Assembly: GCA_013361685.1 (NCBI GenBank)
Contig: JABFXP010000051.1
Location: 78,013 to 142,012, forward strand
DNA: 64,000 bases
DNA from: Catenulispora sp.
GTDB taxonomy: Bacteria > Actinomycetota > Actinomycetes > Streptomycetales > Catenulisporaceae
Reading direction: 5' to 3'
The notes under the pieces: generated by a model
Told to the model about the DNA's origin: nothing
What the model saw: the letters and a program-made list of their open reading frames with translations, nothing else
The model's database searches: none
Shown: positions 19,131-39,517 of the stretch, piece after piece
Layout of the letters: each line of letters opens with the position of its first letter
Position numbering within the stretch: position 1 is the stretch's first letter
Program-made: the position numbers and the translations under genes

Positions 19131-19297
19131 CCCGCCGCGCCGCGCGTCCCGTCCGAACTGTCAGCCAGCTGACACAATCGACCCCTCGGCGACCCTTACC
19201 TCGTGGCAGCTGTCGGTGAGGGCAGGGGAAGGAAACGGACGCCGTGGCGGGTTCCCTGGCTGACACCTTCGGCCGCAACGACGGAGAGCAGGCCCGG

Positions 19298-20713
19298 ATG
19301 AGCTCGTATGACCTGGTGGTGGTCGGCGGCGGCAGCGCCGGGCTGACCGCGGCGCGGCTGGCCGGGCGGCTGGGCGCGCGGGTGCTGCTCGCCGAGCGGG
19401 ACCGGCTGGGCGGGGACTGCCTGTGGACCGGCTGCGTGCCCAGCAAAGCGCTGCTGCACGCCGCCTCGCAGGTGCTGGCGGCGCGACGCGTCGACACGTA
19501 CGGATTGCCGGCGGCCACGGGACCTGCGGACCTGGCGGCGGTGATGGCACAGGTCCACCGGGCGATGGCGGCGATCGCGCCGCACGATTCGGCGGAATCC
19601 TTGAGCGCCGACGGCGTCGAGGTCGCCTTCGGCCCGGCGCGGTTCACCGGCCCGCGTGGCGTGCAGGTCGGCGACCGGCAGGTCGGCTTCCGGTTCGCGC
19701 TGATCGCCACCGGAAGCTCCCCGGCGCTGCCGCCGGTCCCCGGGCTGGCCCTGACGCATCCGCTGACCAGCGACGACGTGTGGGACCTCGAGCGGCTGCC
19801 GGAGCGGCTGGTGGTGCTCGGCGGTGGGTCGATCGGCTGCGAGCTGGGCCAGGCGTTCGCCCGCCTGGGCTCACAGGTGACCATCGTGGAGGCGATGGAA
19901 TGCCTGCTGCCGCGTGCCGAGCCGCGCGCCTCCGTAGCGCTGGCCGAGCATCTGGCCGGCGAGGGCGTCAGGGTGCTGACCGGTGCCGCGGCCGATCGGG
20001 TGGAGCCGGGTGCGTTGCACGTGGCCGGGCAGGTGCTGCCGTTCGATCGGCTGTTGGTGACGACCGGGCGCCGGGCGAACACCGCCGGACTTGAGCTGGC
20101 CGCCGCCTCGGTGCGGGTCGACGAGCGTGGGAACCCGCTGGTGAACGATCGGCTGGGTACCAGCAACCCGCGGATCTTCGCGGCCGGGGACGCTTCCGGC
20201 CGCTCGGCGTTCACCCATCTGGCGGGGGTGCAGGCCGCGTCGGTGGTGACCGGGGCGCTGCTGGGCGTGCGCCGCGGCGTCGACTACGAAGCGGTGCCGG
20301 CGGTGACGTTCACCGATCCGGAGGTCGCGCAGGTCGGCCTGACCGAGGCCGAGGCCCGCGAACGCCACGGCGACAAGGTGCGGGTGCGGGACCTGGACAA
20401 CGACCGGGTGGACCGGGCCGTGGCCGACGGGCGCACCGCCGGCTTTACCCGTCTGGTGCTGGGCCCGCGCGGGCGGATCGTGGGGGCCACCGTGGTCAGC
20501 CCGCGAGCCGGGGAGACGATCGCGCACTTGGCCGCCGCCGTTCGCATGGGGTGGACGCCGTCGAAGTATGCCGCGACCGTGCACCCGTACCCGACCTACG
20601 CCGACGGCCCGTGGAACGCCGCGCTGGCCGAGGTGGCCGGAAGGCTCGGCTCCACAACCGGCCGGGTCGCGATCAAGGCGCTGTTGGGAGCGCGCAGGAC
20701 CGCGAAGCGGTGA
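19298..20713 (+). CDS. FAD-dependent pyridine nucleotide-disulfide oxidoreductase (class I, dihydrolipoamide dehydrogenase/mercuric reductase-like)
   Basis: YDLVVVGGGSAGL, redox-active pair in GGDCLWTGCVPSK, and a dimerisation domain. There is no C-terminal Cys-Cys, so it is not called MerA. Confidence 0.85.
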   Translation: MSSYDLVVVGGGSAGLTAARLAGRLGARVLLAERDRLGGDCLWTGCVPSKALLHAASQVLAARRVDTYGLPAATGPADLAAVMAQVHRAMAAIAPHDSAESLSADGVEVAFGPARFTGPRGVQVGDRQVGFRFALIATGSSPALPPVPGLALTHPLTSDDVWDLERLPERLVVLGGGSIGCELGQAFARLGSQVTIVEAMECLLPRAEPRASVALAEHLAGEGVRVLTGAAADRVEPGALHVAGQVLPFDRLLVTTGRRANTAGLELAAASVRVDERGNPLVNDRLGTSNPRIFAAGDASGRSAFTHLAGVQAASVVTGALLGVRRGVDYEAVPAVTFTDPEVAQVGLTEAEARERHGDKVRVRDLDNDRVDRAVADGRTAGFTRLVLGPRGRIVGATVVSPRAGETIAHLAAAVRMGWTPSKYAATVHPYPTYADGPWNAALAEVAGRLGSTTGRVAIKALLGARRTAKR

Positions 20714-20719
20714 CCCGGC

Positions 20720-21019
20720 TCAACGCCGCTCCCGAGTGCCCTCAATGCGCACCCCGTTCCAGAACGCGACATGGTTCTTGATCCGCTTCGCCAGGAACCA
20801 GGGGTGCGGGTAGTACCAGGCGGCGTCCGGATTGACCTCGCCATCGACGCTCAGCGTGTAGTAGCGGGCCATCCCCTTCCACGGGCACAGCGTCTTGGTG
20901 GGGCTGTCGAGGAAGAACTCGCGGTTGACCGACTCCGGCGGGAAGTAGTGATTGCCTTCCACGATCCTGGTTCTGGGTGTCTGGGCCAGGACCTGACCGT
21001 TCCATACCGCTCGCATCAT
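20720..21019 (-). CDS. DUF427 domain protein
   Basis: Motifs VEGNHYFPPESV, CPWKGMARYYTL, AAWYYPHP and HVAFW. Confidence 0.8.
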   Translation of the reverse strand: MMRAVWNGQVLAQTPRTRIVEGNHYFPPESVNREFFLDSPTKTLCPWKGMARYYTLSVDGEVNPDAAWYYPHPWFLAKRIKNHVAFWNGVRIEGTRERR

Positions 21020-21323: not shown

Positions 21324-21343
21324 GCCAAGGGAACCCGGTTACC

Positions 21344-21976
21344 GTGGTCTGGGATTCCACAATGGAATTCCGATCTAGCCCGGCGGGTTTCCGACGCGTG
21401 GAGCAACCGGTGGCGAGCCTTGACGCAAGTCGGCAGGCGGCATTCGCGAAGTTCGTGCTGCCCGAGGTCGAAGTGCTCTACCGGGTCGCGCTGTCGATGA
21501 CCGCGCAGCCGGCCGACGCCGAGGACCTGGTGCAGGACACGCTGCTGCGCGCCTACCGCGCGATCGACCGGTTCGACGGGGCGCACCCCCGGGCCTGGCT
21601 GCTCACGATCTTGCGCAACGCCGAGGTCAACCGGCACCGGCGCCGCCGCCCGGATCTGCTGGACGACCCGGACGTGCACCTGGAACACGACACCGGTGGC
21701 GGACCGTTCGACATGGTGCCGCCCACGCCGGAGGAGCTGGTGGTCGGACGGGAGTTCGACGAGGTGGTGGACGCCGCGTTCGGCGCGCTGCCGGTCAAGC
21801 ACCGGCAGGTGGTCCGCCTGATCGACATCGACGGGCTGACCTACGCCGAGGCGGCCGTGCTGCTGGGAGTGCCGGAGGGAACCGTGATGAGCAGACTGCA
21901 CCGGGCCCGCAAGCGGATACGCGACCGCCTCGCCGCCGCCGGGCTCGCCCCGAAGCAGGGCGGTGGTGGACGATGA
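21344..21976 (+). CDS. ECF (sigma-70 family) RNA polymerase sigma factor
   Basis: Region 2 DAEDLVQDTLLRAYRAIDRF...WLLTILRN. Region 4 LTYAEAAVLLGVPEGTVMSRLHRARKRI. Alternative ATG at 21362. Confidence 0.85.
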   Translation: MVWDSTMEFRSSPAGFRRVEQPVASLDASRQAAFAKFVLPEVEVLYRVALSMTAQPADAEDLVQDTLLRAYRAIDRFDGAHPRAWLLTILRNAEVNRHRRRRPDLLDDPDVHLEHDTGGGPFDMVPPTPEELVVGREFDEVVDAAFGALPVKHRQVVRLIDIDGLTYAEAAVLLGVPEGTVMSRLHRARKRIRDRLAAAGLAPKQGGGGR

Positions 21977-22251
21977 TGGGCCGCCGACTGCGCCAGATGC
22001 GGGACATGCGCGAGTGCCTGCACGTCGGCCCACAGCTGCAGTCCTACCTGGACGGCGAGTGCGATCCGGCCACCGTCCGCCGGGTGGCCGCGCATCTGGA
22101 GTACTGCCGCAAGTGCGGCCTGGAGCTGGCCGCCTACCGGGAGATCAAGCGGGCGTTGGCGACGCACGAGCAGCCCGCCGACGATGCGGTCGCGCGCCTG
22201 CGGGCCTTCGGCGAGCACCTGGCCGGCGCGGGGCCAGAGGCGGAGCTGTAG
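21973..22251 (+). CDS. zf-HC2 (ZAS-type) anti-sigma factor, short and soluble
   Basis: ATGA overlap with the sigma gene. YLDGEC and HLEYCRKC (H-x3-C-x2-C). Confidence 0.75.
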   Translation: MMGRRLRQMRDMRECLHVGPQLQSYLDGECDPATVRRVAAHLEYCRKCGLELAAYREIKRALATHEQPADDAVARLRAFGEHLAGAGPEAEL

Positions 22252-22449
22252 CCGGCCGGCGGGGAAACCGCAGCTCCGGCCCGCGCCCGGGGAACTCGAC
22301 ACTCCTGCGTGTGCGGGCCGGAACCGGTCACCTGGAGGATACGGAGCGGGCCCGCCGCACCGCGAGTAGCACCCCGAGGGTCATGCCGAAGATCAGGTGC
22401 TCGACCAGGAAGGTGCCGTAGCCGACCATCGTGGCCATGTGCGTGATTT

Positions 22450-23015
22450 GATCGCCGCTGTTCGCGCTGCTGTATGCGATCGCCGAGACCGCGCTGTTCC
22501 CGGGCTCGGTGCTGACCGCCGCGGCGGGAGTGCTGTTCGGGCTCTGGCTCGGCACTGCGACCGTGCTGGTCGGCGCGACGGCGGGCGCGGCGCCGTCGTT
22601 CGGCCTGGCGCGATCACTCGGGCGCCCGGCGGTGGCCCGGCTGATCGGAGACGGCCGGCTGGCCGGGCTGGATGCGTTCGTGTCCTGGCAAGGTTTCTGA
22701 ACCGTGCTGATAGTGCGACTGGTGCCGCTGTTCCCGTTCGCGATCGTCAACTACGGGGCCGGGGTGAGCGCAGTGCGGTTCCGGCCGTACCTGGCGGCCA
22801 CCGCGATCGGCATCGTGCCCGGCACCCTGGCCTACGCCGGGATCGGCGTTTCGCTGCACGATCCCAGCTCTCCGGTGCTGTGGTCGGCGCTGGCGGGGCT
22901 GCTGGCCTTGACCGTCGGCGGCGCCTGGGCCGCCCGGGTCGTTCGCTCCCGCGCGACCCCGCCCGAAGACTCGGCAGGCGATGCTGTCCGGCCGTTCCAC
23001 GACACCCCGTCATGA
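22450..23015 (+). pseudogene. TVP38/TMEM64 (DedA-related) family membrane protein, 5'-truncated with an in-frame TGA at 22698-22700
   Basis: PLFALLYAIAETALFPGSVLTAAAGVLFG...VSWQGF*TVLIVRLVPLFPFAIVNYGAGVS. The family motif RL-P-x-x-PF is present after the stop. There is no start codon for the first 20 codons. Confidence 0.6.
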
Positions 23016-23095
23016 CAGATGGCTGATGCCTGACGGGGTCCTGGACACCGGCAGAACACTGGTTGGCATCCAAGCCATGGACGTTCCGTTCACGT

Positions 23096-23878
23096 TCACT
23101 CGGCTCGGGCGATCAGACGCCGGATCGGGATCGGAACCGAGGGGCGCATGACGGCCGCCGTCCGCACCGCCACGGACAGCACACGCATCCGGGCTGGACC
23201 GGTTCCTTGCAGGTACAGCGAGTCCAACAGCAGCTGCGCGTCGGCACCGGTGCGGACCCGGAAGGAAAAACGGCGCTGCTCGTCGCCGATCAGGCGCAGC
23301 CGGTGGCGGGCGAATGCAGCGCCGGCGTCGGCCAGCGCGGCGTTGTTGGGACTGCGCGGCAGCGATCCGGTACCCAGCAGCAGCCCGAAGAGCCGTGCGG
23401 CGTGGGCGGAGGTAGCGACCTCGGCGGGGACGGTCGCGGCGAGCAGGCCGCCGGGGCGCAGGACCCGGCGGATCTCGGCGAGCACAGCGTCCAGCGGCTG
23501 CGCGATCATCAGCGCCATCGAGCAGACCACCGTGTCGAATACGGCGTCGGGATGAGGCAGCGCGGCGGCGTCCGCGCGGATCAGCTTGCTGACGCCGCTG
23601 CGCTGGGCCGCGTTGAGCTCGGCGGGCGAGCGGTCGACGCCGACGTAAGCGCAGCCCGGCGCGACCGTGCGGCGCATCGGGGCGCTGCCGCAGGCCAGGT
23701 CCAGTACCGTGCCCTGCTTCGGGACGGCGTCGGCCAGCCACCGATACGGCGTGATCCCATGATCGACGGCACGTTGCAGGACGGCTTCGGTGATGCCGGG
23801 GTTGCGCTGGTGGAAGGCGCGCAGGAATTCTTGATTGATCACGCTGTTCTGGCCGATCACAGGATTCTGCGCCACCAT
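23096..23878 (-). CDS. class I SAM-dependent methyltransferase
   Basis: Motif I GTVLDLACGS and post-I/II blocks VGVDRS, DTVVCSMAL and LRPGGLL. Last gene of the 7-gene operon; overlaps the mycoredoxin gene by 22 nt. Confidence 0.8.
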   Translation of the reverse strand: MVAQNPVIGQNSVINQEFLRAFHQRNPGITEAVLQRAVDHGITPYRWLADAVPKQGTVLDLACGSAPMRRTVAPGCAYVGVDRSPAELNAAQRSGVSKLIRADAAALPHPDAVFDTVVCSMALMIAQPLDAVLAEIRRVLRPGGLLAATVPAEVATSAHAARLFGLLLGTGSLPRSPNNAALADAGAAFARHRLRLIGDEQRRFSFRVRTGADAQLLLDSLYLQGTGPARMRVLSVAVRTAAVMRPSVPIPIRRLIARAE

Positions 23879-24171
23879 GGCCTCCTCGCCGGCGCCACGT
23901 CGGCGGTCACCAGATCCGGCGCGTACTCCTCCACGGCGGCCAGCACCGTGGACACACTCGGGTTCACCATTGCGTGCCCGGCCACGACGACGGTGGGGAC
24001 GGTCTCGTCGCCGTTGGCGACCGAGCGCACGAATGCCTTGGCTTCAGGATCGTCCCAGATGTCGACCTCTCGGTAGTGCAGGCCGGTGGCGCGCAGGCCG
24101 CGTCGCAGCTTCCAGCAGTAGCTGCATCCGGGGCGCCAGTAGACGATCACCTCGCCGCTGGAATCGGTCAT
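23857..24171 (-). CDS. mycoredoxin / actinobacterial glutaredoxin-like protein
   Basis: VIVYWRPGCSYCWKL (CxxC), then EVDIWDDPEAKAFVRSV and ETVPTVVV. This pattern matches the mycoredoxin family. Confidence 0.75.
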   Translation of the reverse strand: MTDSSGEVIVYWRPGCSYCWKLRRGLRATGLHYREVDIWDDPEAKAFVRSVANGDETVPTVVVAGHAMVNPSVSTVLAAVEEYAPDLVTADVAPARRPWWRRIL

Positions 24172-24183
24172 GGGGCTTCCTCC

Positions 24184-25854
24184 TCAGATGGCGCAGTGCA
24201 CGGGCGCGGGCAGGTTGCCGTCGGCCAGGCGTGCGGCCAGGAACCGTTCGGTGACCAGGCGCTTGCCTTCGGCCAGCGGTGTGCCGGCCGGGGCCAGGTG
24301 CATGTCGGGGCTGGTCGCGGCATCGGCGCCGGCCGGGTGCCAGTGCAGGCCGTCGGCGCTGACGGTCAGCTCCGGGATGCTGCTGTCCTCGCCGATCTCC
24401 TGCCCGGTCTCGGAGAACCCGCGGCGCAGCAGGGGCCGTACCGCGAAGTTCGCCGGCGGCAGGCCGAGGCCGGCCAGAAGTTCGGCGACCTGCTCGATCT
24501 CGCCGGCGTTCTCCGGGGTCTCGGTCAGCGCCACGCGCGGCGGGAACCCGATGTCGATCAGGAGTCTGATGCCGTCCAGGGTGCGGGTGAACGAACCGCG
24601 TCCGCGGTGCGCGTCGTGGGTGGCCGGGCACGCGCCGTCCAGCGAGGTCTGGATCACCAGTTTGCGATCGGCCAGGTCGGCGAGCCGGGACATGCGCCGG
24701 GTTCCGGCGAGCATGGCGTTGGTCAGCACGACGGTGGGCAGCGCCGAGCTGGCGGCATCCAGCAGGGCGATGATGTCAGGGTGCAGGAACGGCTCGCCGC
24801 CGGTCAGGTACAGCTCGGCGAAGCCCTCGGCGACGGCCTGCTCGACCAGCGCGCCGAAGGCGTCCACCGTCAGCGATCTGGGCCGGGCCCGGGGTGAGGA
24901 CGCGACCGCGCAGTAGTCGCAGCGCAGGTTGCAGTGGAAGTTGGTGTAGATCCACAGCCGGGACGGGAAGTAGTCCGACCCGAACAGCGGGATCACCGGA
25001 CGCGCATCGTCGCCGGCGGAGGTCGTTTCGCCCCAGCCGCCGGCCGGGGCGAACGCGGTGGGCAGGGCGCTGCGATACAGGTGGAACCGTCCCCTTGAGC
25101 GCTCGGCCGGCGGCAGTGATTCCAGGCAGGTGGTCCACCAGCCGGTCTCGATGGTCTCGGCGAACGGCTCCGGGAGCCCGGCGTGGCGCATCGAGGCGGC
25201 CTGCGATCGCCAATCGTAGGCCAGTGGCACGAGTTCGGCCGAGGCCTGGCCGTCGTCGAGATCGAGCAGCGCGTACCAGACCTGCGTGTTCCCGTCATTC
25301 GCGGGCTTGCCCAGCACGCCCACGTTGACGGCGAGGGCCTGCCCGATCCGCCGGATCCAGGGCAGGCCGCTGTGCGTGCACAAGATCACTTGTGCGCCGC
25401 TGGCCGCCGCGCGCGCCCGGTGCTCGGATTCCGGCAGCGATTCCCACCAGAAGTCGTTGAGTGCCAACGGGGATCCGTGGACCATGTGGACGGCGCAGCC
25501 TCCGATCTGAAGGCGGCGCTCGGTGGGCAGAGCACCCATCCAGGCGGCGAACGGTCGGCTGGTGGTGGCCAGCGTGTGGTCGTAGATGAGCTGGGCGTAG
25601 GCGTTGTCGCGTTCGTCGCGGTAGCCGCAGCCGCAGTCCGGGTCGGCGCGGGCGATCGCGACGTCGTAGTTCCCGGCGACGCACTCGACGCGGTTTTCGC
25701 GCAGGATCGGCCACAGCGCGTCGACCTCGGCGCCGAACCCGCCCAGATCACCCAGACAGAACAAGCGGTCGGCACCCCGGACGCGGGCGTCGCAGACGAA
25801 CGCCCGCAGTGCGTAGGGGTTGCCGTAGGGGCCTCCGGATACTGCGATCCGCAT
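24184..25854 (-). CDS. fusion protein: N-terminal metallophosphoesterase-like domain + C-terminal radical SAM domain
   Basis: Residues 1-245 are calcineurin-like (LGDLGG, AGNYD, VHMVHGSP, LCTHSG). Residues 300-556 are radical SAM, with CNLRCDYC at residues 308-315 followed by LYLTGGEPFL. Confidence 0.8.
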   Translation of the reverse strand: MRIAVSGGPYGNPYALRAFVCDARVRGADRLFCLGDLGGFGAEVDALWPILRENRVECVAGNYDVAIARADPDCGCGYRDERDNAYAQLIYDHTLATTSRPFAAWMGALPTERRLQIGGCAVHMVHGSPLALNDFWWESLPESEHRARAAASGAQVILCTHSGLPWIRRIGQALAVNVGVLGKPANDGNTQVWYALLDLDDGQASAELVPLAYDWRSQAASMRHAGLPEPFAETIETGWWTTCLESLPPAERSRGRFHLYRSALPTAFAPAGGWGETTSAGDDARPVIPLFGSDYFPSRLWIYTNFHCNLRCDYCAVASSPRARPRSLTVDAFGALVEQAVAEGFAELYLTGGEPFLHPDIIALLDAASSALPTVVLTNAMLAGTRRMSRLADLADRKLVIQTSLDGACPATHDAHRGRGSFTRTLDGIRLLIDIGFPPRVALTETPENAGEIEQVAELLAGLGLPPANFAVRPLLRRGFSETGQEIGEDSSIPELTVSADGLHWHPAGADAATSPDMHLAPAGTPLAEGKRLVTERFLAARLADGNLPAPVHCAI

Positions 25855-25895
25855 GGTGTGCTGCTCCAGGTGGTTGGGGATTCAGGGTTCGGTTG

Positions 25896-27305
25896 TCAGG
25901 CGGGGGCCGGCACCGGAGCCGGTACCAACGATTCCAGGGCGCGTCCGGCGGCCTCGGTGCCGCCGCGCGCGCCGTAGGCGGTCATGGCACCGGCACCGAC
26001 CAGCCAGAAGGCGATGACCAGCAGGTAGGAGGCGGTGGGGCCGATCCGGGTGGCCACATCCGGCAGCGACAGGGTGCCGAGGATCGCGCCGATCCGGCCG
26101 ACGGCCACGCACATCCCTATCCCGGCGCCGCGCAGGTGGGTCGGGAACAGCTCGCTGAACGTCGGGTAGGCCGAGGTCCAGGCGGCTGTGGCCACGCCGT
26201 TGGCGACGACGAACGCCGCCGTCACCCAGGCCCCGGACCCGGTGGCGGTGGCGGCGGCCAGCAGCCCGACCCCGGCGGCTGCGGCCAGGTAGCTGCCGGT
26301 GACGGTGACCCGACGCCCGGCCCGGTCCAGCAGCGCCGCTGCCGTGAGCCCGCCGATCAGGCCGCCGACGTTGCCGACGATGTAGAAGAACGGGATCTGC
26401 GCCGATCCGATGTGGACTGCTGGTAGCACCACGACCGACAGCAGCGCGAAGATGCCGTAGTAGCCGAACGCCTCGGCCAGATCCAGCGCGGTGCCCAGCG
26501 CGAGCCGGCCGGGATAGCGGCGGACCAGCTCACCGAGCGCGGCCCGCGTCGATGGCGTCTGCCGCTCAGGCTCGGCCGCAGCCTCGTTCGGTGTCGGCCG
26601 GGTGATCCCGCAGGCGTGTTCGAGATCTGCCACGATCTGTTCGGCCTCGGCGGTCCGGCCGCGTGCGGCCAGCCAGCGCGGGGATTCCGGGATGCGGCGG
26701 CGGAAGTACAGCACGATCAGCGCCAGCAGCCCGCCCAGGACGAACAGGTATCGCCAGGATGTCGCGCTGCCCAGGGCGAGGGTGTCCAGCAGGAAGTAGG
26801 CCAGCAGGGCGGCGATGACCGCCCCGGCCGGCCAGAAGTTCATCACTGTCACCGACGCCCGGCCCCGGACCCGGGCCGGCATGAACTCGGCGATCGCCGC
26901 GTTCACGATCGCGTACTCGGCCCCCACCCCGAGGGCGGCCAGGAACCGCAGGACGTAGACGAAGCCGAGGCTGGGGCTTAGCCCGGTCAGCACGGTGAAC
27001 CCGGCGTACCAGAGCAACGTGAGCACGAACATGCGGCGCCGCCCGAGTCGGTCGGTCAGCGCCCCGCCGGTCAGGGCGCCGATCAGGATCCCGGACAGCC
27101 ACACTGCGAGTACTGAGTCGCGGGCGAACACCGAGGCGTGGAAGTGGTCGCCGAGCGGGCCGACGGCGCTGGAGAACAACTGCACCTCCAGGGAGTCGAA
27201 CAGCCAGCCGGCGCCCAGGGCGAGCAGGATCGTGGTGTGTCGGGGGCTCCAGGGCAGCCGGTCCAGGCTGGCACCGAGGGATTCCGGTGTCGAGGTCTCG
27301 GTCAT
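25896..27305 (-). CDS. MFS transporter
   Basis: About 12 TM segments; loop 2-3 motif TDRLGRRRMF. ATGA-type 4-nt overlap with the upstream fused transferase gene. Confidence 0.85.
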   Translation of the reverse strand: MTETSTPESLGASLDRLPWSPRHTTILLALGAGWLFDSLEVQLFSSAVGPLGDHFHASVFARDSVLAVWLSGILIGALTGGALTDRLGRRRMFVLTLLWYAGFTVLTGLSPSLGFVYVLRFLAALGVGAEYAIVNAAIAEFMPARVRGRASVTVMNFWPAGAVIAALLAYFLLDTLALGSATSWRYLFVLGGLLALIVLYFRRRIPESPRWLAARGRTAEAEQIVADLEHACGITRPTPNEAAAEPERQTPSTRAALGELVRRYPGRLALGTALDLAEAFGYYGIFALLSVVVLPAVHIGSAQIPFFYIVGNVGGLIGGLTAAALLDRAGRRVTVTGSYLAAAAGVGLLAAATATGSGAWVTAAFVVANGVATAAWTSAYPTFSELFPTHLRGAGIGMCVAVGRIGAILGTLSLPDVATRIGPTASYLLVIAFWLVGAGAMTAYGARGGTEAAGRALESLVPAPVPAPA

Positions 27306-28705
27306 CGCAACACGCTTCCTTTCGCACGGGAGGAACGGGCGGAGGACAGATTGCGCAGGGACGGGGGTCCCGCGGTGTAGCTGCGGCGCAGTGTTTCCGG
27401 TGAGGCACCGAGCAGGTAGCGGATCTTGATGATCTGCATGAAGGCGATCATGCGCCAGGTGCCGTGGGCTTGGAACCGGCGCGCCGAGGCGGTCGAGGTG
27501 GCGGTCAGGACGGCGAGCCGGCCGGTCTTGTGCAGGCGGCGGGAGAACTCGAAGTCCTCCATCAGCGGGTAGTCGGGGAAGCCGCCGAGCACGTCGAACA
27601 CGGTCCGGCGGACGAACATCGCCTGGTCGCCGAAGATCTGTCCGAGCCGTCGGGCGCGCTGGTTGGACGACCAGGCCAGGAATCGCAGGCCGATCGTGTC
27701 GTGGTCGAAGCGCAGGGTCAGGCCGCCGCCGACGACGTCCGCATCATCCAGCGCACGCCGAATGCCGTCCAGGGCGGCCGGGTCGATGACGGTGTCGGCG
27801 TGGACGAACCACAGAACCTCGCCGCCGGCCGCTTGAGCGCCGGTGTTGAGCTGGCGCCCCCGTCCAGGCTCGCAGCCGACCACCTTCGCGAAGCCGGCGG
27901 CGAGGTCCGCGGTGCCGTCTGTGCTGCCGCCGTCGACGACGACGATCTCGATGTCGGGGAAGTCGCGGCCGAGGCGGGTCAGGGCCGGCACGATCCCGGC
28001 GGCTTCGTTCAGTGTCGGCATGACGATCGAGACGGTGGCGTTGGTCATACCGACACCTGTCGTTGGCAGGAGAGCTTTGGCGACAGCGTCCGGCAACTCT
28101 GGATCCGCCAGCAGAGCTGCCGCATCCTCGGGGGTGTCGAGGTCACGAAGCGCCGGCAGCAGCTCGACACGCCCGGCTCGGCGCAGCCGGCTCACGGTCG
28201 CGGCCATGACGTGCGGGCCGCTCCACAGCGCCGGGTCGATGGCGAAGGCGGCCGGGTGCGGCCAGTGCACGGCCAGCAGGTAGTAGCCGCCGTCCAGGGC
28301 CGGGCCGATCGCGGCGGCCGAGCCGGAATCCAAGACGGTGAACGCCTGAACGATCATGTCGGCGGTCAGGGTCGGAGCGTCGGTGCCGATGACGACCAGC
28401 GGCCCGCCGCCGGGTAGAGCGTCATCGGCGGCGGCGGTCATTCGTTCGCCTAGGTTCCCGCCGCGTTGCGGCAGCAGCTCTACCTGCCCGCCGGTCAGGG
28501 CCCTGACCTCGGCCTGGGCGCTGGGCGGGTCGAAGGCCACCACGACGCGCCGCTGTGATCCCAGCGCGGTCGTCACGGTGTTCGCCAGCAGCTGCGCCTG
28601 CAGCCGTGCGCAGCCGTCCGGGCCGAGCAGCGGATGAAGGCGGGTCTTGACGCGGCCTGGACGCGGTGTCTTGGCCATCACCAGGACCGTCGGCGCGCCG
28701 GTCAT
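27302..28705 (-). CDS. fusion protein: DUF2064/CofC-like nucleotidyltransferase ('transferase 1') + family-2 glycosyltransferase ('transferase 2')
   Basis: N-terminal half: VLVMAKTPRPGRVKTRL, GGNLGERM, VVIGTDAP, PALDGGYYLL, LRDLDTPEDA. C-terminal half: VSIVMPTLNEA, EIVVVDGGSTDGT, GRGRQLNTGA, FVHADT, FGDQAMFVRR, PLMEDFEFSRRL. Confidence 0.8.
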   Translation of the reverse strand: MTGAPTVLVMAKTPRPGRVKTRLHPLLGPDGCARLQAQLLANTVTTALGSQRRVVVAFDPPSAQAEVRALTGGQVELLPQRGGNLGERMTAAADDALPGGGPLVVIGTDAPTLTADMIVQAFTVLDSGSAAAIGPALDGGYYLLAVHWPHPAAFAIDPALWSGPHVMAATVSRLRRAGRVELLPALRDLDTPEDAAALLADPELPDAVAKALLPTTGVGMTNATVSIVMPTLNEAAGIVPALTRLGRDFPDIEIVVVDGGSTDGTADLAAGFAKVVGCEPGRGRQLNTGAQAAGGEVLWFVHADTVIDPAALDGIRRALDDADVVGGGLTLRFDHDTIGLRFLAWSSNQRARRLGQIFGDQAMFVRRTVFDVLGGFPDYPLMEDFEFSRRLHKTGRLAVLTATSTASARRFQAHGTWRMIAFMQIIKIRYLLGASPETLRRSYTAGPPSLRNLSSARSSRAKGSVLR

Positions 28706-29490
28706 GATGTGAACCGGTAGATCAGGCCCGCCGGCGTCAGGTCGGCCAGCTTTGGCAGCGCCGCCTCCAGCAGATCGGCGAAGATCCCGGCGCTGGCCGC
28801 CATGCGGGCCACCAAGGCGTCGATCGGCTCCGGATGCTCGACCACACCGTTGGCGTAGTCGGTGACGAATCCGACCAGCGCAAGCGGTAGCTCCGCCTCA
28901 CCGGCGAGCACCACCTCCGGGCCGGCGGTCTGGCTGACCGCGCTGACGCCGACGCCGGCCAGCGCGGCGATCTCCGTGCGGGTGTTGAAGCGCGGGCCGT
29001 CGACGTGCCCGTAGCAGCCGCGGTCCCGCAGCGGGGTGCCAGCCGCGCCGGCGGCGCTGATCAGAGCTTCGCCCACGGGTGCGCTGAACGGCCGATCGAA
29101 GATCCAGTGTCCGCGGTCCTTCGCGGCCGGCTCGTCGAACCAGGTGCACGTGCTCCCGTCCGGCAGCCGGTTGCCCGGGAAGTACAGGTCGTCGAACACG
29201 ATCAGCGACCCGGGTTCGACCGCCGGGTCCACCGCGCCGCACACGGTCAGCGAGATCACGCAGTCGACGCCTGTCTCCCGCAACGCGGCGATGTTCGCCT
29301 TGTGGTCGACGTGGTTGGACAGTCGGGCGTGCCCGGTGCCGTGCCGGGCCAGATGCACCACCTCGACGCCGGCCACCGTGCCGACGGTGACGTCGGCCTC
29401 GCCGTGGCGGGTCTGCATCGTCCGTGAGACCGCGTCCTGAAGACCGGGCCAGGTGTAGCCGCCCGATCCGCTGATCACCCCTACTCGCAT
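28702..29490 (-). CDS. MTAP-family purine nucleoside phosphorylase (S-methyl-5'-thioadenosine phosphorylase-like)
   Basis: VGVISGSG, LARHGTGH, HKANIAALRETGVDCVISLTVCGAV, GPRFNTRTE and VTDYA blocks of the PNP_UDP_1/MTAP family. Confidence 0.85.
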   Translation of the reverse strand: MRVGVISGSGGYTWPGLQDAVSRTMQTRHGEADVTVGTVAGVEVVHLARHGTGHARLSNHVDHKANIAALRETGVDCVISLTVCGAVDPAVEPGSLIVFDDLYFPGNRLPDGSTCTWFDEPAAKDRGHWIFDRPFSAPVGEALISAAGAAGTPLRDRGCYGHVDGPRFNTRTEIAALAGVGVSAVSQTAGPEVVLAGEAELPLALVGFVTDYANGVVEHPEPIDALVARMAASAGIFADLLEAALPKLADLTPAGLIYRFTS

Positions 29491-30923
29491 GTGGGCCTCT
29501 CCATCGTCGTCGCATCCTCACGTCCGCCGGTGCGGACCTGCACGATCGGTAGCAGTCGCCGCAGTTGCGCGTTCTCGCCCGGGTCCAGCACGCTGTGCTG
29601 CACGCACGCCGGAACCACCGTCCCGTCCTCCGGGTGGGCCATCGCGTAATGGCACGCCGACAGCCGCTCGACGGTTTCCCGGATCCGCGGATCATCGCTG
29701 CTCTGGCCGCGCTGCATGAGATCCCAGGCCGTAGTGACGTCGGCGGCGTCCATGAACCGGTGCATCACGTAGGACGTGATACGCACCCGGCGGCACCGCG
29801 CCAGGCGCCTGATACCCACGCGGCGCACGGCACGGACCAGCCAGCCCACCGCGAGGACGACGGTCTGCGGGCGGCGCACCGCGACCCTGGTCAGCTGGGC
29901 TGCGAGCTGTGGGACGGGGGTTCCTGCGAAATCAAAGGCTCCCAGGTGCCGGAAGAACCCGTCGCGGACCGCCAGGTCCCGTCGATCCGCACCGTCGAGG
30001 ACCGGGAACCAGCGATCACCGACCCAGAAGCCGTAGGCGACCCGATTGCAGCGCACATCGCCGTGCTCGAAGATCCGATAATCCAGCTTGGTTCCGACCC
30101 CGCGCTCGATCTGCTCCCACACAGCGTCGCTGTCCACATCTCGGTAGTCCTCGTGCCAGCGGCGGGAGTCCCCGACGAAAGCCGCCGGCTGGAAGGAGAA
30201 CATCCCGAACCCCATGCCGCTGCTGTCGCGGACCACGTCGGCGACCTGGTCCAGGTTGGCCGGCGTGACGGTCATGTTGTGCGCGGCGAAGGTGCGCACC
30301 CCGGTCTCGGCGCGCAGCCGGCGCAGCTTGGCGGTGAACTCGGCCCGATACCGGTTCAGAGAGCGCTCGTCACCCGGGCGCGCGATGCCGCGGCGGCCGA
30401 ACATGAACATATCGAAGTGCGCGGCGAACGACAGCCGGTCGAACCGGCGCTTCCCGTCCGGGCCGAGCGCGAGCCGGCGAAGGTAGGCGTAGTCGACGTC
30501 GCCGTGGGTGAAGCTCATCGGCTCCCGGCCGTGCTGGCGCATCGCGGCCAGTGCCGCCGCATGGTCGTCGGGGTCCAGCAGGCTCACCTCGCCGCCGATC
30601 AGCTGCGCGTGCGCCCGCGGGCCGCGGACCCGGCGCAGCAGCGCCATCTGCGCCTCCACGTTCGCCACCGTGTGGCCGCCGTCAACGCGGACCTGGTTGG
30701 CGTCGCGAGAGTGGTAGCAGGGCGTGCAGGCCAGATTGCACTTGGGGAACACCCCGTGAGTGCCCTCACACCCCACGCCATGCCGCCCCAGCACCTGCCC
30801 TGGCGTTTTGACGTGAGGCGGGAGATCGTCCCAGCGCCGCCGCATCGCCGCCGCGAAGTCGCCGTCCACCGGGCGTGTGACACACTCCAGCCGCCGCAGC
30901 ATCGACACCACGCGCCACGTCAT
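29481..30923 (-). CDS. radical SAM protein, unclassified 480-aa family
   Basis: CNLACTPC (CX3CX2C) at residues 62-69, then LIGGEVSLL. Large C-terminal extension with conserved-looking Cys/His. First gene of the operon. Confidence 0.8.
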   Translation of the reverse strand: MTWRVVSMLRRLECVTRPVDGDFAAAMRRRWDDLPPHVKTPGQVLGRHGVGCEGTHGVFPKCNLACTPCYHSRDANQVRVDGGHTVANVEAQMALLRRVRGPRAHAQLIGGEVSLLDPDDHAAALAAMRQHGREPMSFTHGDVDYAYLRRLALGPDGKRRFDRLSFAAHFDMFMFGRRGIARPGDERSLNRYRAEFTAKLRRLRAETGVRTFAAHNMTVTPANLDQVADVVRDSSGMGFGMFSFQPAAFVGDSRRWHEDYRDVDSDAVWEQIERGVGTKLDYRIFEHGDVRCNRVAYGFWVGDRWFPVLDGADRRDLAVRDGFFRHLGAFDFAGTPVPQLAAQLTRVAVRRPQTVVLAVGWLVRAVRRVGIRRLARCRRVRITSYVMHRFMDAADVTTAWDLMQRGQSSDDPRIRETVERLSACHYAMAHPEDGTVVPACVQHSVLDPGENAQLRRLLPIVQVRTGGREDATTMERPTCE

Positions 30924-31121
30924 TCATCACTCCGCTCACGAGCCAGCACCGACCAGATCCAGGAAGGGAACCCGCTGCCCGGCGGGAACCTTCCATCCAG
31001 TCCGGGATGAACCCGACTCCAGCCCCAACCGTTTTGATCTTGGGGGCGGTCTGCCGCTGGTCTTGTCGAGCGCTGAAGCCGGTGCCGGGGTGTCGGGCAT
31101 GCCGCCCAAGGAGGTCTCGCC

Positions 31122-31628: not shown

Positions 31629-31863
31629 CGTCCGGTAGCCGATCGGCCTGGCGAATCCGGGTCCGCCCTGCGCGGAGTGGAAGGCACCCGAGCGCCGCCG
31701 GGTTCCCCAGGGTGGGCGCCGCGAACGTCCGGCGATCGATCATGACGGGATGTGCGATGAACGGCAGTCGAATGCCGCTGACCGGGGCGACGCGCAGAAT
31801 GCGTGCTGTCCGTCGCAGACCCTGGCACCGAGCGCGTCGGCTGCGTCGTGGCGGTCTTCGGCC

Positions 31864-32799
31864 ATGACGCCGGCATATCTGCCGAGCCCGCCGCACGGCG
31901 TGTGGCATCTGGGCCCGATTCCGCTGCGGGCCTACGCCCTCTTCATCCTGGCCGGGATCGTCGTCGCGATCTGGGTGACCCGGCGGCGCTGGAGCGCCCG
32001 CGGCGGCAGCGCCGACGACATCGTGGACATCGCGCTCTGGGCCGTGCCGTTCGGGCTGGTCGGCGGTCGGCTCTACCACGTGACCACCGACCCCGAGCTG
32101 TACTTCAAGTACGGCGAACAGCCGATCCGCGCCCTGTACATTTGGGACGGCGGCCTGGGTATCTGGGGTGCGGTGGCGCTCGGGGCGGTCGGAGCGTGGA
32201 TCGGCTGCCGACGCAAGGGCATCGTCCCGGCCGACTTCGCCGACGCCGTGGCCCCGGGCCTGGTGCTGGCGCAGGCGATCGGCCGCTGGGGCAACTACTT
32301 CAACCAGGAGCTGTACGGCAGGCCGTCCGGTCTGCCATGGGCGATCCGCATCGACCCGGCGCACCGGCCGCCATCCACCCCGGACGCCGTGTTCCACCAG
32401 CCGACGTTCCTGTACGAATCGGTCTGGGACGTTGGGGTCGCGGTGTTGCTGCTGTGGGTCGACCGTCGCTGGCAACCGCGCCGCGGACGCCTGTTCGCGA
32501 TCTATGTCGTGGCCTACACCCTGGGCCGGGCCTGGGTGGAGGCGCTGCGCGAGGACCACGCCAACCGCATCGCCGGGGTGCGCCTGAACGACTGGACCTC
32601 GCTGCTGGTGTTCACCGCCGCGATCGTCTACCTGACCCTGCGCCGCGATCGCACCGTCACCCCCGCCACCGCGGCCGAACCGGAGCACCGCAGGCCCGAA
32701 TCCCGCGAGAGCGGGCAGGGCGACAAGCCTCCTGAGCCCGACCCGACACAGAACAGAAAATCAGCCCGAGCTCCCACCGACAGCGAAGGTCCACCGTGA
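31864..32799 (+). CDS. lgt: prolipoprotein diacylglyceryl transferase
   Basis: Blocks LRAYALFILAGI, GGRLYHV, IWDGGLGIWG, GRWGNYFNQELYG and PTFLYES. ATG at 31864, internal to the track ORF. Confidence 0.9.
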   Translation: MTPAYLPSPPHGVWHLGPIPLRAYALFILAGIVVAIWVTRRRWSARGGSADDIVDIALWAVPFGLVGGRLYHVTTDPELYFKYGEQPIRALYIWDGGLGIWGAVALGAVGAWIGCRRKGIVPADFADAVAPGLVLAQAIGRWGNYFNQELYGRPSGLPWAIRIDPAHRPPSTPDAVFHQPTFLYESVWDVGVAVLLLWVDRRWQPRRGRLFAIYVVAYTLGRAWVEALREDHANRIAGVRLNDWTSLLVFTAAIVYLTLRRDRTVTPATAAEPEHRRPESRESGQGDKPPEPDPTQNRKSARAPTDSEGPP

Positions 32800-33717: not shown

Positions 33718-34116
33718 TCAGTCCTGTCGGCTGGTCGGGATGCGGGTGCAGCAATCCAAGGCGGCGGAATTGTCCGCAGCAAGGGCACGGGCCAGCACTA
33801 ACAGGTCCGCCACCCGCGGATCGCCGGCCGAGTAGCGGAACTTCTTGCCGTCCCGGCGGGCGACCACATAGCCGCAATCGACCAGGCACGACAGGTGCAC
33901 CGAGGCCCGCGGCTGGGAGATGCCGGCGTGCTCGATGCACTCGGCCACGGTGCGCTCGCCGGCCAGGATGAACTCCAGCAGCCCCAGCCGGGTCGGATCA
34001 CCCAGCGCCCGGAAGAACCGGGCCACCGTGTCGGTGTGCGAACAGCCCTCCTCGAGCGCGGCCGGCGCGAGGCTCACGGCACTGGTGCTGACGTTCACGG
34101 CGGTCCTCCCGGGCAA
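33718..34116 (-). CDS. ArsR/SmtB family metalloregulator (actinomycete-type mer repressor)
   Basis: FRALGDPTRLGLLEFIL...VAECIEHAGISQPRASVHLSCLVDCGYV. Divergent to merA. Confidence 0.85.
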   Translation of the reverse strand: MPGRTAVNVSTSAVSLAPAALEEGCSHTDTVARFFRALGDPTRLGLLEFILAGERTVAECIEHAGISQPRASVHLSCLVDCGYVVARRDGKKFRYSAGDPRVADLLVLARALAADNSAALDCCTRIPTSRQD

Positions 34117-34219: not shown

Positions 34220-35647
34220 ATGGCCAGCACGGGCAGCGGATACGACCTGGCGATCATCGGCTCCGGCTCGGCGGCGTTCGCCGCGGCCATCGCCGCCCGC
34301 GGCAAGGGCGCGTCGGTCGTCATGATCGAGCGCGGCACGATCGGCGGTACCTGCGTGAACGTGGGCTGCGTGCCGTCCAAGGCGCTGCTGGCCGCCGCCG
34401 AGGCCCGCCACGCGTCCCTGACCGCGCACCGTTTCCCCGGCATCATCGCCGACGCGGGCACCGTGGACATGCCCGCGCTGATCGGCGGCAAGGACACGCT
34501 GGTCACGCAAATGCGTGCGGAGAAGTATGTGGACCTGGCCGCCGACTACGACTGGGAAATCGTGGCCGGGACCGCGTCGTTCGTCGACGGCTCGGCGCTG
34601 ACCGTGGCGTTGAACGACGGCGGCCTGCGAACGATCGAGGCCGCGCACTACCTGGTCGCCACCGGTTCCGCACCCTGGATCCCGCCGGTGCCGAGACTGG
34701 CCGAGGCCGGGTATCTGACCTCGACGACCGCGATGGAACTCGAGCACCTGCCGGAATCGATGGTGGTGGTCGGCGGCAACGCCGTCGGCCTGGAGCAGGC
34801 CCAGCTGTTCGCCCGACTCGGCGTCGCGGTGACCGTGGTCGAAGCCCTGGACCGGCTGGCCCCGTTCGAAGAACCCGAGATCTCCGCGGTCATCGAGCAG
34901 GTCTTCACCGGCGAGGGCATCACCGTCCGCACCGCCACCACGCTGACCGGCGTCGACCGCGACGAACGCGGCTATACGCTGACCGCAGCTCGCGCCGGCG
35001 AGCTGGTCGAGCTGCGGGCCGAGCAGCTGCTGATCGCCACCGGCCGCCGCCCGGTCACGACCGGGCTCTGCCTGGACAAGGCCGGGGTGAAGACCGGCCG
35101 GCGAGGCGAGATCGTCGTGGACGAGCACCTGCGCACCACCAACCCACGGATCTGGGCCGCCGGCGACGTCACCGGTCACCCTCAGTTCGTTTACGTCGCC
35201 GCCGCCCACGGCACCCTGGTCGCCGACAACGCCCTGTCCGGCGCCGACCGGACCCTGGACTACACCGCGATGCCGCGCGTCACCTTCACCAGCCCGGCCA
35301 TAGCCTCGGTCGGGATGACCGACGAACAAGCCGTCCAGGCAGGCATCGGCTGCGACTGTCGCACCCTGCCGCTGGAGTACGTGCCCAGGGCGTTGGTGAA
35401 CCGCGACACGCGCGGCCTGGTCAAACTCGTCGCCGATGCCGAAACCGGCCGGCTGCTGGGCGCGCACGTGATCGCCGAGGGCGCCGGCGAACTCATCACC
35501 GCCGCAGGCTACGCGATCAGCGCCGGGATGACCGTCGACCAGATCGCCCACGCCTGGGCCCCATACCTGACCATGGCCGAGGCGCTCAAGCTCGCCGCCC
35601 AGACCTACACCGCCGACGTCAGGAAACTGTCCTGCTGCGCCGGCTGA
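34220..35647 (+). CDS. merA: mercuric reductase (no NmerA domain)
   Basis: YDLAIIGSGSAAF, redox pair GGTCVNVGCVPSK, and the C-terminal vicinal cysteines ...RKLSCCAG. Confidence 0.9.
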   Translation: MASTGSGYDLAIIGSGSAAFAAAIAARGKGASVVMIERGTIGGTCVNVGCVPSKALLAAAEARHASLTAHRFPGIIADAGTVDMPALIGGKDTLVTQMRAEKYVDLAADYDWEIVAGTASFVDGSALTVALNDGGLRTIEAAHYLVATGSAPWIPPVPRLAEAGYLTSTTAMELEHLPESMVVVGGNAVGLEQAQLFARLGVAVTVVEALDRLAPFEEPEISAVIEQVFTGEGITVRTATTLTGVDRDERGYTLTAARAGELVELRAEQLLIATGRRPVTTGLCLDKAGVKTGRRGEIVVDEHLRTTNPRIWAAGDVTGHPQFVYVAAAHGTLVADNALSGADRTLDYTAMPRVTFTSPAIASVGMTDEQAVQAGIGCDCRTLPLEYVPRALVNRDTRGLVKLVADAETGRLLGAHVIAEGAGELITAAGYAISAGMTVDQIAHAWAPYLTMAEALKLAAQTYTADVRKLSCCAG

Positions 35648-38248: not shown

Positions 38249-38577
38249 GCGAAGCCGGATCCGGGCCGGGAGCGCCGGCCGAACGGGGAAAGACGTCCAC
38301 CGGCGTCGACAACGTTGTCACTGCGCCGCGCCTGTTCGCGACGGTGTTCTCGCGAAGCTCGCTGAGCAAGTGCGTGCCGATAGCGTTGTTCGTCGGCACG
38401 GTGCTGTCGCTGGTGAACCAGGGCTCGGTGCTCTTCGCAGGCACAGTCACTGCGGTGACTTGGATCCGTGTGGCGGTGAACTTCCTCGTGCCGTTCTGCG
38501 TCTCCAGTGCAGGTTTCTATGGCAGCCAGCGCGCCATGTGGCGGGCCATGCGGCTGTCACATCGACGTCATACCTGA
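38245..38577 (+). CDS. NrtS-like small membrane protein (putative nitrate/nitrite transporter family)
   Basis: VPIALFVGTVLSLVNQGSVLFAG...AVNFLVPFCVSS resembles the NrtS family signature as I recall it. GTGA overlap with the DUF1326 gene. Confidence 0.5.
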   Translation: MSEAGSGPGAPAERGKTSTGVDNVVTAPRLFATVFSRSSLSKCVPIALFVGTVLSLVNQGSVLFAGTVTAVTWIRVAVNFLVPFCVSSAGFYGSQRAMWRAMRLSHRRHT

Positions 38578-39390: not shown

Positions 39391-39517
39391 AGCGGCTCCC
39401 TCAAACGCTGCGCTCTTCCAGGACAGCACAATCCGGGCCCGGCGGCGTGTCGAGGGACGGCCTGGTCGGACCGGTCAGCGGGGAATCGGGCCAACTGGTC
39501 TCGCTGTGGCGTGTCAG

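Follow-up and report, generated by a model that had tools for sequence, protein, structure and literature searches.

Closest described systems and the Catenulispora operon

The ArsS-linked 'rSAM/selenodomain' cassette combines the radical S-adenosylmethionine (SAM) enzyme of TIGR04167 with the transferases of TIGR04282 and TIGR04283, and is curated by NCBI as arsenosugar biosynthesis. Here we compare this and other described systems with a seven-gene operon encoding two radical SAM enzymes (rSAMs), located in a 64,000-nucleotide (nt) stretch of Catenulispora sp. (contig JABFXP010000051.1, positions 78,013 to 142,012), hereafter the window. Radical addition of a 5'-deoxyadenosyl group followed by removal of adenine by an enzyme of the PNP/MTAN family is known from HpnH/HpnG in hopanoid side-chain formation and from MqnE/MqnB in the futalosine pathway. 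The mycobacterial methylthioxylose (MTX) pathway uses an NAD-type epimerase, GalE3, and its gene cluster reportedly includes the MTAP Rv0535 and the DUF2064-like protein Rv0540. In M. tuberculosis, MtxS (Rv0539) forms decaprenyl-phosphate-methylthioxylose and MtxT (Rv0541c) transfers MTX (PMC12088412, PMC8780516), and antioxidant properties have been proposed for MTX (PMC10503756). The MTX capping of lipoarabinomannan is the closest described actinomycete pathway.

Much like the ArsS cassette, the operon encodes two transferase domains that score above the curated cutoffs, with an rSAM and a metallophosphoesterase-fold protein alongside, and the logic proposed for it is similar, leading from a SAM-derived adenosyl adduct to a sugar conjugate. 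In contrast to that cassette, its rSAM is not ArsS, a second and unrelated rSAM of 480 residues (rSAM480) and an MTAP-subfamily phosphorylase are added, ArsM and ars genes are lacking, and there is SigR/RsrA-like extracytoplasmic function (ECF) sigma control together with a dedicated disulfide reductase. The chemistry proposed for the operon resembles that of arsenosugars or methylthioxylose, yet the operon is distinct from the ArsS arsenosugar system. The resemblance to MTX, drawn from domain types and not from sequences, lies in an actinomycete pathway whose GT2 enzyme makes a polyprenyl-phosphate-linked 5-substituted pentose; the MTX pathway, however, contains no radical SAM enzyme, and has an epimerase and the GT-C transferase MtxT, neither of which is encoded in the operon. 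The operon also differs from HpnH and MqnE, to which its rSAMs are unrelated at the family level, in having no isoprenoid or menaquinone context and in a scheme where nucleotidyl activation and glycosyl transfer follow. A sequence-only reading of the same DNA had held that no actinomycete system of this architecture was described; this stands for the cluster itself, since queries of the searchable library for the cluster, TIGR04282/3, DUF2064 with radical SAM, Rv1681/MoeX and TrsS/DVU_1556 returned no paper on this system, but not in full, because the partly analogous MTX pathway is described.

We put at about 50% the probability that the operon specifies a pathway, controlled by thiol stress and served by a dedicated disulfide reductase, in which a 5'-substituted adenosine derived from SAM is turned into a 5-substituted pentose linked to a lipid. 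By its sequence, the operon appears to form the biosynthetic part of a stress regulon that is conserved among actinomycetes and governed by a SigR/RsrA-like sigma factor and a ZAS anti-sigma factor.

Operon structure, conservation and gene fusions

All seven minus-strand genes delimited in the sequence-only reading were recovered in the open reading frame (ORF) listing of the window (Table 1), and their junctions and domain content were reproduced by that listing and by domain searches. Genes 1 to 4 overlap at their three junctions by 10, 4 and 4 nt; genes 4 and 5 are separated by 41 nt and genes 5 and 6 by 12 nt, and genes 6 and 7 overlap by 22 nt. All seven ORFs have a GC content at third codon positions (GC3) of 0.87-0.91, a value typical of coding sequence in high-GC actinomycetes; the window as a whole has about 70% GC. 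No sigma-70-type promoters were found within the operon and terminator-like sites were not above chance, and no riboswitch or other RNA matched Rfam anywhere in the window. The seven genes form a real operon. The nearest relatives of its proteins are 78-81% identical in Actinocrinis puniceicyclus and 87-88% identical in other Actinomycetota.

We inspected synteny in five loci (L001-L005), took a census over 80 more (L006-L085), and counted partner genes by tblastn in the 62 loci with enough flanking DNA. The same gene set in the same order occurs in Streptomyces hypolithicus, Segeticoccus, Actinocrinis and a Mycobacteriales metagenome-assembled genome, and synteny is also seen in Pseudonocardiales, so that the synteny sought as a check on the sequence-only reading was found in many genomes. 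In the 62-locus census the pair of metallophosphoesterase-fold domain and rSAM was present in 38/62 loci and GT2 in 36/62, while DUF2064, which diverges fast and is undercounted, was seen in 21/62. The phosphorylase (23/62), methyltransferase (17/62), mycoredoxin (8/62) and MFS transporter (4/62) are accessories because each occurs in a minority of these loci. The companion genes proposed earlier are thus all there, but the phosphorylase, methyltransferase, mycoredoxin and transporter vary and are not a fixed part of the system.

Independent gene fusions bind the parts into one pathway. The DUF2064+GT2 fusion of the window recurs in about 25 other protein clusters, and the metallophosphoesterase-fold and rSAM fusion is the standard architecture among its relatives (about 558 residues, about 75% identity). 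The earlier observation that four functions are packed into two fusions therefore stands, but not their supposed peculiarity to this locus. A single 693-residue ORF joins GT2 to rSAM480 in Actinomycetospora cinnamomea DSM 45771, another Actinomycetospora has this fusion too, and the reverse order, rSAM480-GT2, occurs in Streptomyces sp. KLOTTS4A1. In L087 (7605-11311) a 799-residue triple fusion of metallophosphoesterase-fold domain, rSAM and phosphorylase is followed by a 436-residue DUF2064+GT2 fusion; divergently upstream lie genes for a 396-residue flavoprotein and the flavoprotein disulfide reductase (FDR), and there is no rSAM480 within 10 kb. This locus lends support to the proposed steps of phosphorolysis, nucleotidyl activation and glycosyl transfer, because the triple fusion adjoins the DUF2064+GT2 fusion. 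GT2/rSAM480 fusions were located at 9260-12024 of L051, where a DedA/VTT gene directly follows the GT2-rSAM480 fusion, at about 4005-6068 of L042, and in protein P0460.

In loci without the transferase module, the genes after rSAM480 make up an alternative module of a YnjF-type CDP-alcohol phosphatidyltransferase (36% identity to E. coli YnjF, E = 2e-34), a YnjB-type ABC importer (435 bits on NF008633, whose cutoff is 203; 33% identical to YnjB, E = 7e-56) and peroxiredoxin-like proteins. Over the 80 loci, 47 carry the metallophosphoesterase-fold rSAM/GT2 module, 32 YnjF, 4 both and 5 neither; DedA/VTT genes, from a family described as flippases, are near rSAM480 in 29/80, and L005 has a GtrA-like gene. 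The uncharacterised ydjXYZ-ynjABCDEF cluster of E. coli (L088, NC_000913.3 1833401-1841403) is similar in having DedA twice, an AhpD-like protein, the YnjBCD ABC transporter and YnjF. It differs in lacking a homolog of either rSAM and in having the rhodanese/sulfurtransferase YnjE, whereas the actinomycete loci examined showed no rhodanese. Enzymes of both kinds, DPM1-like GT2s and CDP-alcohol phosphatidyltransferases, link polar groups to the phosphates of lipids, and the most economical reading is therefore that the substrate or product of rSAM480 is lipid-anchored.

Radical SAM enzymes and their partners

The transferase halves encoded by gene 3 belong to TIGR04282 and TIGR04283, as the sequence-only reading had predicted. 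Residues 7-194 score 163.8 bits for transferase 1 (DUF2064; cutoff 134) and residues 225-443 score 225.6 bits for transferase 2 (GT2; cutoff 182). The DUF2064 half has a CofC-like nucleotidyltransferase fold (CofC match 39 bits) and the GT2 half matches MftF at 35 bits and, faintly, HpnB at 32.5 bits; structural relatives of the fused protein are 3CGX and DPMS-like GT2 structures. Like the transferases of the curated cassette, it is encoded beside radical SAM enzymes, with two rSAM genes in the operon, conserved adjacency and existing fusions. Public product names include 'arsenosugar biosynthesis glycosyltransferase' and 'rSAM/selenodomain-associated transferase'. A database record (P0391) identical to the fused transferase has just 376 residues, 81% of the ORF length, and its source contig is 6.5 kb long. 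The start of the DUF2064 domain may therefore be missing from public gene calls.

Both rSAMs belong to the radical SAM superfamily by motif and by barrel fold (Foldseek), and the CX3CX2C motif of each is invariant among aligned homologs. In rSAM480 the motif is CNLACTPC (C62/C66/C69), PF04055 matches weakly at 22 bits, and the lone NCBIfam match is TrsS at 16 bits; TIGR04167 (ArsS) gave no match. The homolog alignment contains four more invariant cysteines (C52, C292, C424 and C440), a pattern that suggests an auxiliary cluster. A PDB sequence search returned no relative, and the AlphaFold model (pLDDT 76, pTM 0.80) retrieved only generic rSAM barrels at TM about 0.3. Distant full-length relatives of rSAM480 reach Tes/GDGT-MAS and TrsS at 40-67 bits against cutoffs of 450-490. 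These are the only named families touched, and the sequence similarity is too weak to assign rSAM480. Tes acts on membrane lipids. A structural kinship with GDGT-MAS/Tes was rejected, as 7TOL is not among the Foldseek matches listed. We conclude that rSAM480 represents an unnamed, new radical SAM family. Its relatives in the database number over 2,500; the top ones are about 70% identical and labelled just 'radical SAM domain-containing protein'. An exhaustive search of 50%-identity representatives delimits a compact family of 574 at E <= 0.001, and the protein is encoded in at least 593 species genomes. Among the matches listed, the hosts include Streptomyces, Pseudonocardiaceae, Mycobacteriales, Propionibacteriales, Streptosporangiaceae, Acidimicrobiales and Nanopelagicales.

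The product of gene 5 joins a Metallophos_2-type domain (residues 1 to about 240) to an rSAM domain (residues about 294-554; CNLRCDYC, C308/C312/C315). The best match of the latter is the uncharacterised Rv1681 family NF049973, at 259.5 bits against a cutoff of 380, a level below equivalog assignment; the match spans profile positions 68-325, with the metallophosphoesterase-fold domain in place of the N-terminus. In sequence and fold the domain is nearest to BlsE, DesII and SkfB, which are sugar-/nucleoside- and peptide-modifying rSAMs. An identity as ArsS was rejected: TIGR04167 gives 51.4 bits against a cutoff of 300, ranking fourteenth among generic rSAM matches, and no ArsS-type C-terminal domain was detected in this rSAM. 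With ArsM and ars genes missing as well, the ArsS and arsenosugar tie drawn in the sequence-only reading falls away, but the profile, PDB and structure searches placed neither rSAM in a characterised family, so that one outcome named there as refuting did not arise.

The N-terminal domain has the calcineurin-like metallophosphoesterase fold (PF12850, 44 bits), and its predicted structure is closest to the Ap4A hydrolase SapH (3QFM, TM 0.78 by Foldseek). No match at E <= 0.001 was found for this half in NCBIfam, including the ArsS-linked phosphoesterase. In 33/33 aligned homologs motif I (D-x-H) is replaced by GGPYxNP and GNH[DE] by GNYD, and a DxDCGCGYxD insert is conserved. We read the domain, from its sequence and modelled fold, as a probable nucleotide-binding or otherwise non-canonical module and not a phosphatase. 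A dephosphorylation step is doubtful because motif I is absent and GNYD stands for GNH[DE] in all 33 homologs, so the 'phosphoesterase' of the earlier account, and the step built on it, are unsupported.

The gene 2 product belongs to the PNP_UDP_1/MTAP family (PF01048, 86 bits), with 155.6 bits on TIGR01694 (cutoff 274.85) and a faint HpnG match at 22.6 bits. In 26/26 cluster-linked copies the phosphate-binding and catalytic residues (human MTAP T18, R60, H61, T93, T197 and D220) are kept, and the pocket changes A94V, S178N, M196Q and D222A (human numbering) are invariant. This conservation points to a distinct phosphorylase subfamily with a remodelled pocket, and not to a housekeeping MTAP.

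The remaining products are an MFS transporter resembling sugar porters and aromatic-acid symporters, with a 73% identical copy in L086; a mycoredoxin (TIGR02200, 89.8 bits against a cutoff of 89.5) with a CSYC active site; and a methyltransferase whose best match is the DVU_1556 family, at 62 bits and below cutoff. An identity of the methyltransferase as ArsM was rejected, with 17-28 bits against cutoffs of 263-575 and three cysteines only, without the ArsM pattern.

An apparent SigR/RsrA-like regulon

The operon appears, from promoter motifs and neighbouring genes, to belong to a SigR/RsrA-like ECF regulon that reaches beyond the span given in the sequence-only reading. Genes for an ECF sigma factor and a ZAS-type anti-sigma factor lie about 1 kb past its 3' end. 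The sigma factor has regions 2 and 4 and the anti-sigma factor the HxxxCxxC motif, and both fall short of equivalog level; on these scores they are paralogs of SigR/RsrA and not SigR/RsrA themselves. The likeness to SigR-RsrA (SigH-RshA) extends to a GGGAA-N-GTT-type promoter and to thiol/disulfide enzymes as targets, whereas the operon-linked pair differs in having a small regulon of its own.

Comparison of upstream regions across loci yielded a bipartite SigR-type motif, GGGAAsS-N15-17-sRTTCC. The pattern has four sites in the window against 0.62 expected, a number reached in 1/100 shuffles, and all four end 40-44 nt ahead of start codons, namely those of FDR, sigma factor, operon and Lgt paralog. 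A stricter motif gave 68 matches over the 80 loci against 2-7 in shuffles, and 29/68 are upstream of the FDR gene. In their longest form the FDR and sigma ORFs begin within, or ahead of, the promoter motifs of these same genes, and translation probably starts at ATG 19298 for FDR and at GTG 21398 for sigma.

FDR, which resembles glutathione reductase, is the tightest partner of rSAM480, found within 10 kb and usually adjacent in 55/62 loci; an ECF sigma gene is near rSAM480 in 31/62 and an anti-sigma gene in 26/62. Further neighbours with a thiol theme over the 80 loci are AhpC-TSA_2 (31) and a YpdA-like flavoprotein (33), and MauE was also seen. None of the 80 other loci showed an Lgt gene close to rSAM480, and the Lgt paralog of the window would be, by its promoter motif, an apparent member of the regulon in this genome only. 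In Pseudonocardiales-type loci the window motif is absent and another conserved element, around the palindrome GAACCGGTTC, is present instead.

Several observations concern individual genes of the regulon. An identity of the cluster-linked FDR as mercuric reductase was rejected, with 352 bits on TIGR02053 against 454.45 and no MerA-type C-terminal cysteine pair. Some loci have two tandem FDR paralogs upstream of the rSAM, and Streptomyces loci and L087 encode the extra flavoprotein, of about 400 residues, with faint similarity to the bacillithiol-disulfide reductase YpdA (33/80 loci); the positions for these observations are 7109-9932 of L029 and 16128-17336 of L007. In the Pseudonocardiales-type loci the two rSAM genes are divergent (L033, L038, L043, L045-L050, L052, L056, L060-L067, L071 and L074), and their short intergenic region holds the element TGTTCTTACC...GCGAACCGGTTCGGC...GATCAGCGAA with its perfect palindrome, which could represent back-to-back promoters or an operator. 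In the window the DedA/VTT gene matches VTT profile positions 1-53 before its in-frame TGA and 74-122 after it, in a frame bounded by a stop at 22449-22451, with no clear start, yet its GC3 is still about 0.9. The interruption reflects either a pseudogene of recent origin or a fault in the assembly. An ORF at 22397-23026 was rejected as the DedA gene, being a wrong-frame artefact.

Table 1. Features of the window (positions in the 64,000-nt stretch)
Feature	Position	Strand	Details
Gene 1, rSAM480	29481-30923	-	480 aa
Gene 2, MTAP-subfamily phosphorylase	28702-29490	-	262 aa
Gene 3, fused DUF2064+GT2 transferase	27302-28705	-	467 aa
Gene 4, MFS transporter	25896-27305	-	469 aa
Gene 5, metallophosphoesterase-fold + radical SAM fusion	24184-25854	-	556 aa
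Gene 6, mycoredoxin	23857-24171	-	104 aa
Gene 7, class I SAM methyltransferase	23096-23878	-	260 aa
ECF-type motif before FDR gene	19227-19255	+	motif scan
Flavoprotein disulfide reductase (FDR)	19298-20713	+	CLWTGC redox disulfide, HPYPT C-terminal motif; longest ORF opens at 19244
DUF427 (NTP_transf_9) protein	20720-21019	-	107 bits; recurrent companion of the sigma/anti-sigma pair
ECF-type motif before sigma gene	21330-21358	+	motif scan; autoregulation
ECF sigma factor, SigH/SigR-like	21398-21976	+	TIGR02947 105 bits, cutoff 251.55; longest ORF opens at GTG 21344
ZAS-type anti-sigma factor, RsrA-like	21973-22251	+	HLEYCRKC (HxxxCxxC); lone NCBIfam match RsrA TIGR03988, 32 bits, cutoff 62.5
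DedA/VTT membrane protein gene, interrupted	22452-23015	+	after anti-sigma gene; in-frame TGA 22698-22700
ECF-type motif before operon	30967-30994	-	GGAAGG-N15-GGGTTCC; ends 44 nt upstream of ATG 30923
ECF-type motif before Lgt paralog	31679-31706	+	ends 44 nt upstream of Lgt start
Lgt paralog	31750-32799	+	TIGR00544 151.6 bits, cutoff 118.9
ArsR/SmtB regulator	33718-34116		divergent from merA
merA	34220-35647		TIGR02053 608 bits, cutoff 454; ends ...SCCAG
DUF1326 gene	36228-36887		after merA
DUF1326 gene	37628-38248		after merA
PpoB2 copper-chaperone-like gene	38557-39429		after merA
Serine recombinase gene	13399-14706	+	Recombinase + Zn-ribbon; upstream of regulon
DUF2218 + cytochrome P450 fusion	42598-44208	+	536 aa

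Proposed pathway and alternative explanations

In the pathway that we propose, the Rv1681-like rSAM would generate or work on a SAM-derived 5'-substituted 5'-deoxyadenosine, with its degenerate Ap4A-hydrolase-like N-terminal domain serving as a nucleotide-binding module rather than a phosphatase. The phosphorylase would strip adenine to leave a 5-substituted pentose-1-phosphate, which DUF2064 would activate to an NDP-sugar, and GT2 would transfer the sugar to a phosphorylated lipid acceptor, possibly polyprenyl phosphate by analogy with MtxS. rSAM480 would then act on the lipid-linked substrate or product, and the MFS transporter would move a precursor or the product. Mycoredoxin, FDR and methyltransferase would handle a thiol-reactive heteroatom, most likely sulfur, with selenium, tellurium and arsenic possible. 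The order of phosphorolysis, activation and transfer in the sequence-only reading is retained in this scheme, favored by the L087 fusions, while its dephosphorylation is dropped.

Several points weigh against our proposal. Every chemical step is deduced from the families that the proteins resemble. Neither of the two rSAMs is similar to an enzyme known to adenosylate its substrate (ArsS 51 bits; HpnH and MqnE not among the top matches), and the polyprenyl-phosphate acceptor is suggested by analogy. The operon contains no GT-C or other final transferase; no GT-C transferase or sugar epimerase was found among its seven genes or in its flanks. The phosphorylase is lacking in about half of the transferase-module loci (23/38), and its role might be mere relief of 5'-deoxyadenosine inhibition. 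The definition of the promoter motif partly drew on the operon's own site in this window, and the regulation is not universal, since Pseudonocardiales loci carry a different element.

One alternative is salvage without radical adenosylation, in which the phosphorylase would act on methylthioadenosine (MTA) or 5'-deoxyadenosine, which SAM enzymes release as by-products, and DUF2064 and GT2 would turn the pentose-1-phosphate into a 5-methylthio- or 5-deoxy-pentose linked to a lipid, much like the mycobacterial cap, while the rSAMs would only tailor the sugar or lipid by epimerisation, C-methylation or cross-linking. MtxS/Rv0539 and MtxT provide its precedent (PMC12088412, PMC8780516), the similarity of the fusion rSAM to BlsE, DesII and SkfB agrees with it, an rSAM could take the place of the NAD-dependent epimerase that is lacking, and a thiol-stress regulon suits an antioxidant envelope sugar. 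We nevertheless think it unlikely, as the four invariant pocket changes, including M196Q and D222A, argue against a plain MTA substrate, the triple fusion of rSAM and PNP-family phosphorylase suggests direct hand-over of the rSAM product, there is no GT-C transferase, and the dedicated disulfide reductase would be left without a role. A pathway of the cofactor type seems to us highly improbable. In such a pathway CofC-like and MftF-like transferases would build a phosphodiester-linked redox cofactor or headgroup, as for F420 and mycofactocin, with the rSAMs forming its core and the phosphorylase only clearing inhibitory 5'-deoxyadenosine. The cluster shows no evident gene for a precursor peptide or another scaffold of a cofactor, and the TIGR04282/3 scores far exceed those of the CofC (39 bits) and MftF (35 bits) matches that speak for it. 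Redox proteins do surround the cluster, and the alternative CDP-alcohol phosphatidyltransferase partner does form phosphodiester bonds. The phosphorylase is dispensable in many loci, which also speaks for this reading, but its pocket is conserved and specialised and it is fused to an rSAM in L087.

A genuine arsenosugar-type pathway would require arsenite to be methylated by the methyltransferase and then adenosylated by one of the rSAMs, adenine to be removed by the phosphorylase, and dimethylarsinoyl-ribose to be activated, glycosylated and exported by the MFS transporter. Membership in TIGR04282/TIGR04283 and the NCBI name 'arsenosugar biosynthesis glycosyltransferase' speak for it, and the gene inventory suits the open steps after ArsS; the mycoredoxin could serve reduction of arsenate or As(V), and a thiol-switch anti-sigma factor could sense arsenite. 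We rate it as quite improbable, given the ArsS scores (51 bits against 300 for the fusion rSAM, no match for rSAM480), a methyltransferase with at most 28 bits on ArsM models and three cysteines, and the absence of ars genes among the annotated genes of the window. The methyltransferase and mycoredoxin are also absent from most related loci, and the recurrent nearby metal genes are of merA/arsR type and not arsenic genes. ArsS is known to adenosylate arsenic (PMC12159101, citing Cheng et al. 2021), which favors this pathway, but actinomycetes are reported to form only simple methylated arsenicals, bisenarsan excepted (PMC12159101).

As a long shot, the proposed pathway could serve to form and keep up a so far undescribed low-molecular-weight thiol or selenol anchored in the membrane. 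This would be a 5-thio- or 5-seleno-pentose linked to a lipid, formed through radical adenosylation of a sulfur or selenium species, phosphorolysis, activation and transfer to a lipid phosphate. If true, a disulfide reductase using NAD(P)H would be dedicated to this thiol, with proteins like peroxiredoxins as partners and a sensor of the SigR kind, and it would form a third actinomycete thiol redox system beside mycothiol and ergothioneine; the trio of phosphorylase, DUF2064 and GT2 would also reveal the missing post-ArsS steps of arsenosugar synthesis.

The system is a variant of a curated but experimentally uncharacterised cassette whose transferases public pipelines already label, and across actinomycete genomes the name 'arsenosugar biosynthesis glycosyltransferase' is probably misleading. 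Two rSAM families, about 70-75% identical across hundreds of actinomycete species, many of them Streptomyces, are without assigned function. The ZAS anti-sigma factor makes thiol-reactive stress the likely inducer class, and together with the promoter motif and the fusions, which show cooperating enzymes, makes the system testable; the two-gene version of L087 is a minimal form suited to heterologous expression. The trio of phosphorylase, DUF2064 and GT2 offers the first concrete candidates for conversion of an ArsS-type adenosyl adduct into a glycoside.

Metal genes and other features of the window

The window encodes a mercuric reductase, identified by its TIGR02053 score and C-terminal cysteine pair, with a divergent ArsR/SmtB regulator. 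No arsenic (ars) genes were found among the annotated window genes. The description of the locus as lying among metal(loid) resistance genes therefore stands for merA and the ArsR/SmtB gene but not for arsenic genes. In L024, L057, L075, L083 and L085 there is likewise a true merA no more than 10 kb from the rSAM, in some cases accompanied by arsR.

Positions 4001-6000 of the window have a GC content of 0.61 against about 0.70, and this stretch and the serine recombinase gene may mark the edge of an integrated element. The fusion of DUF2218 with cytochrome P450 is of an unusual kind.

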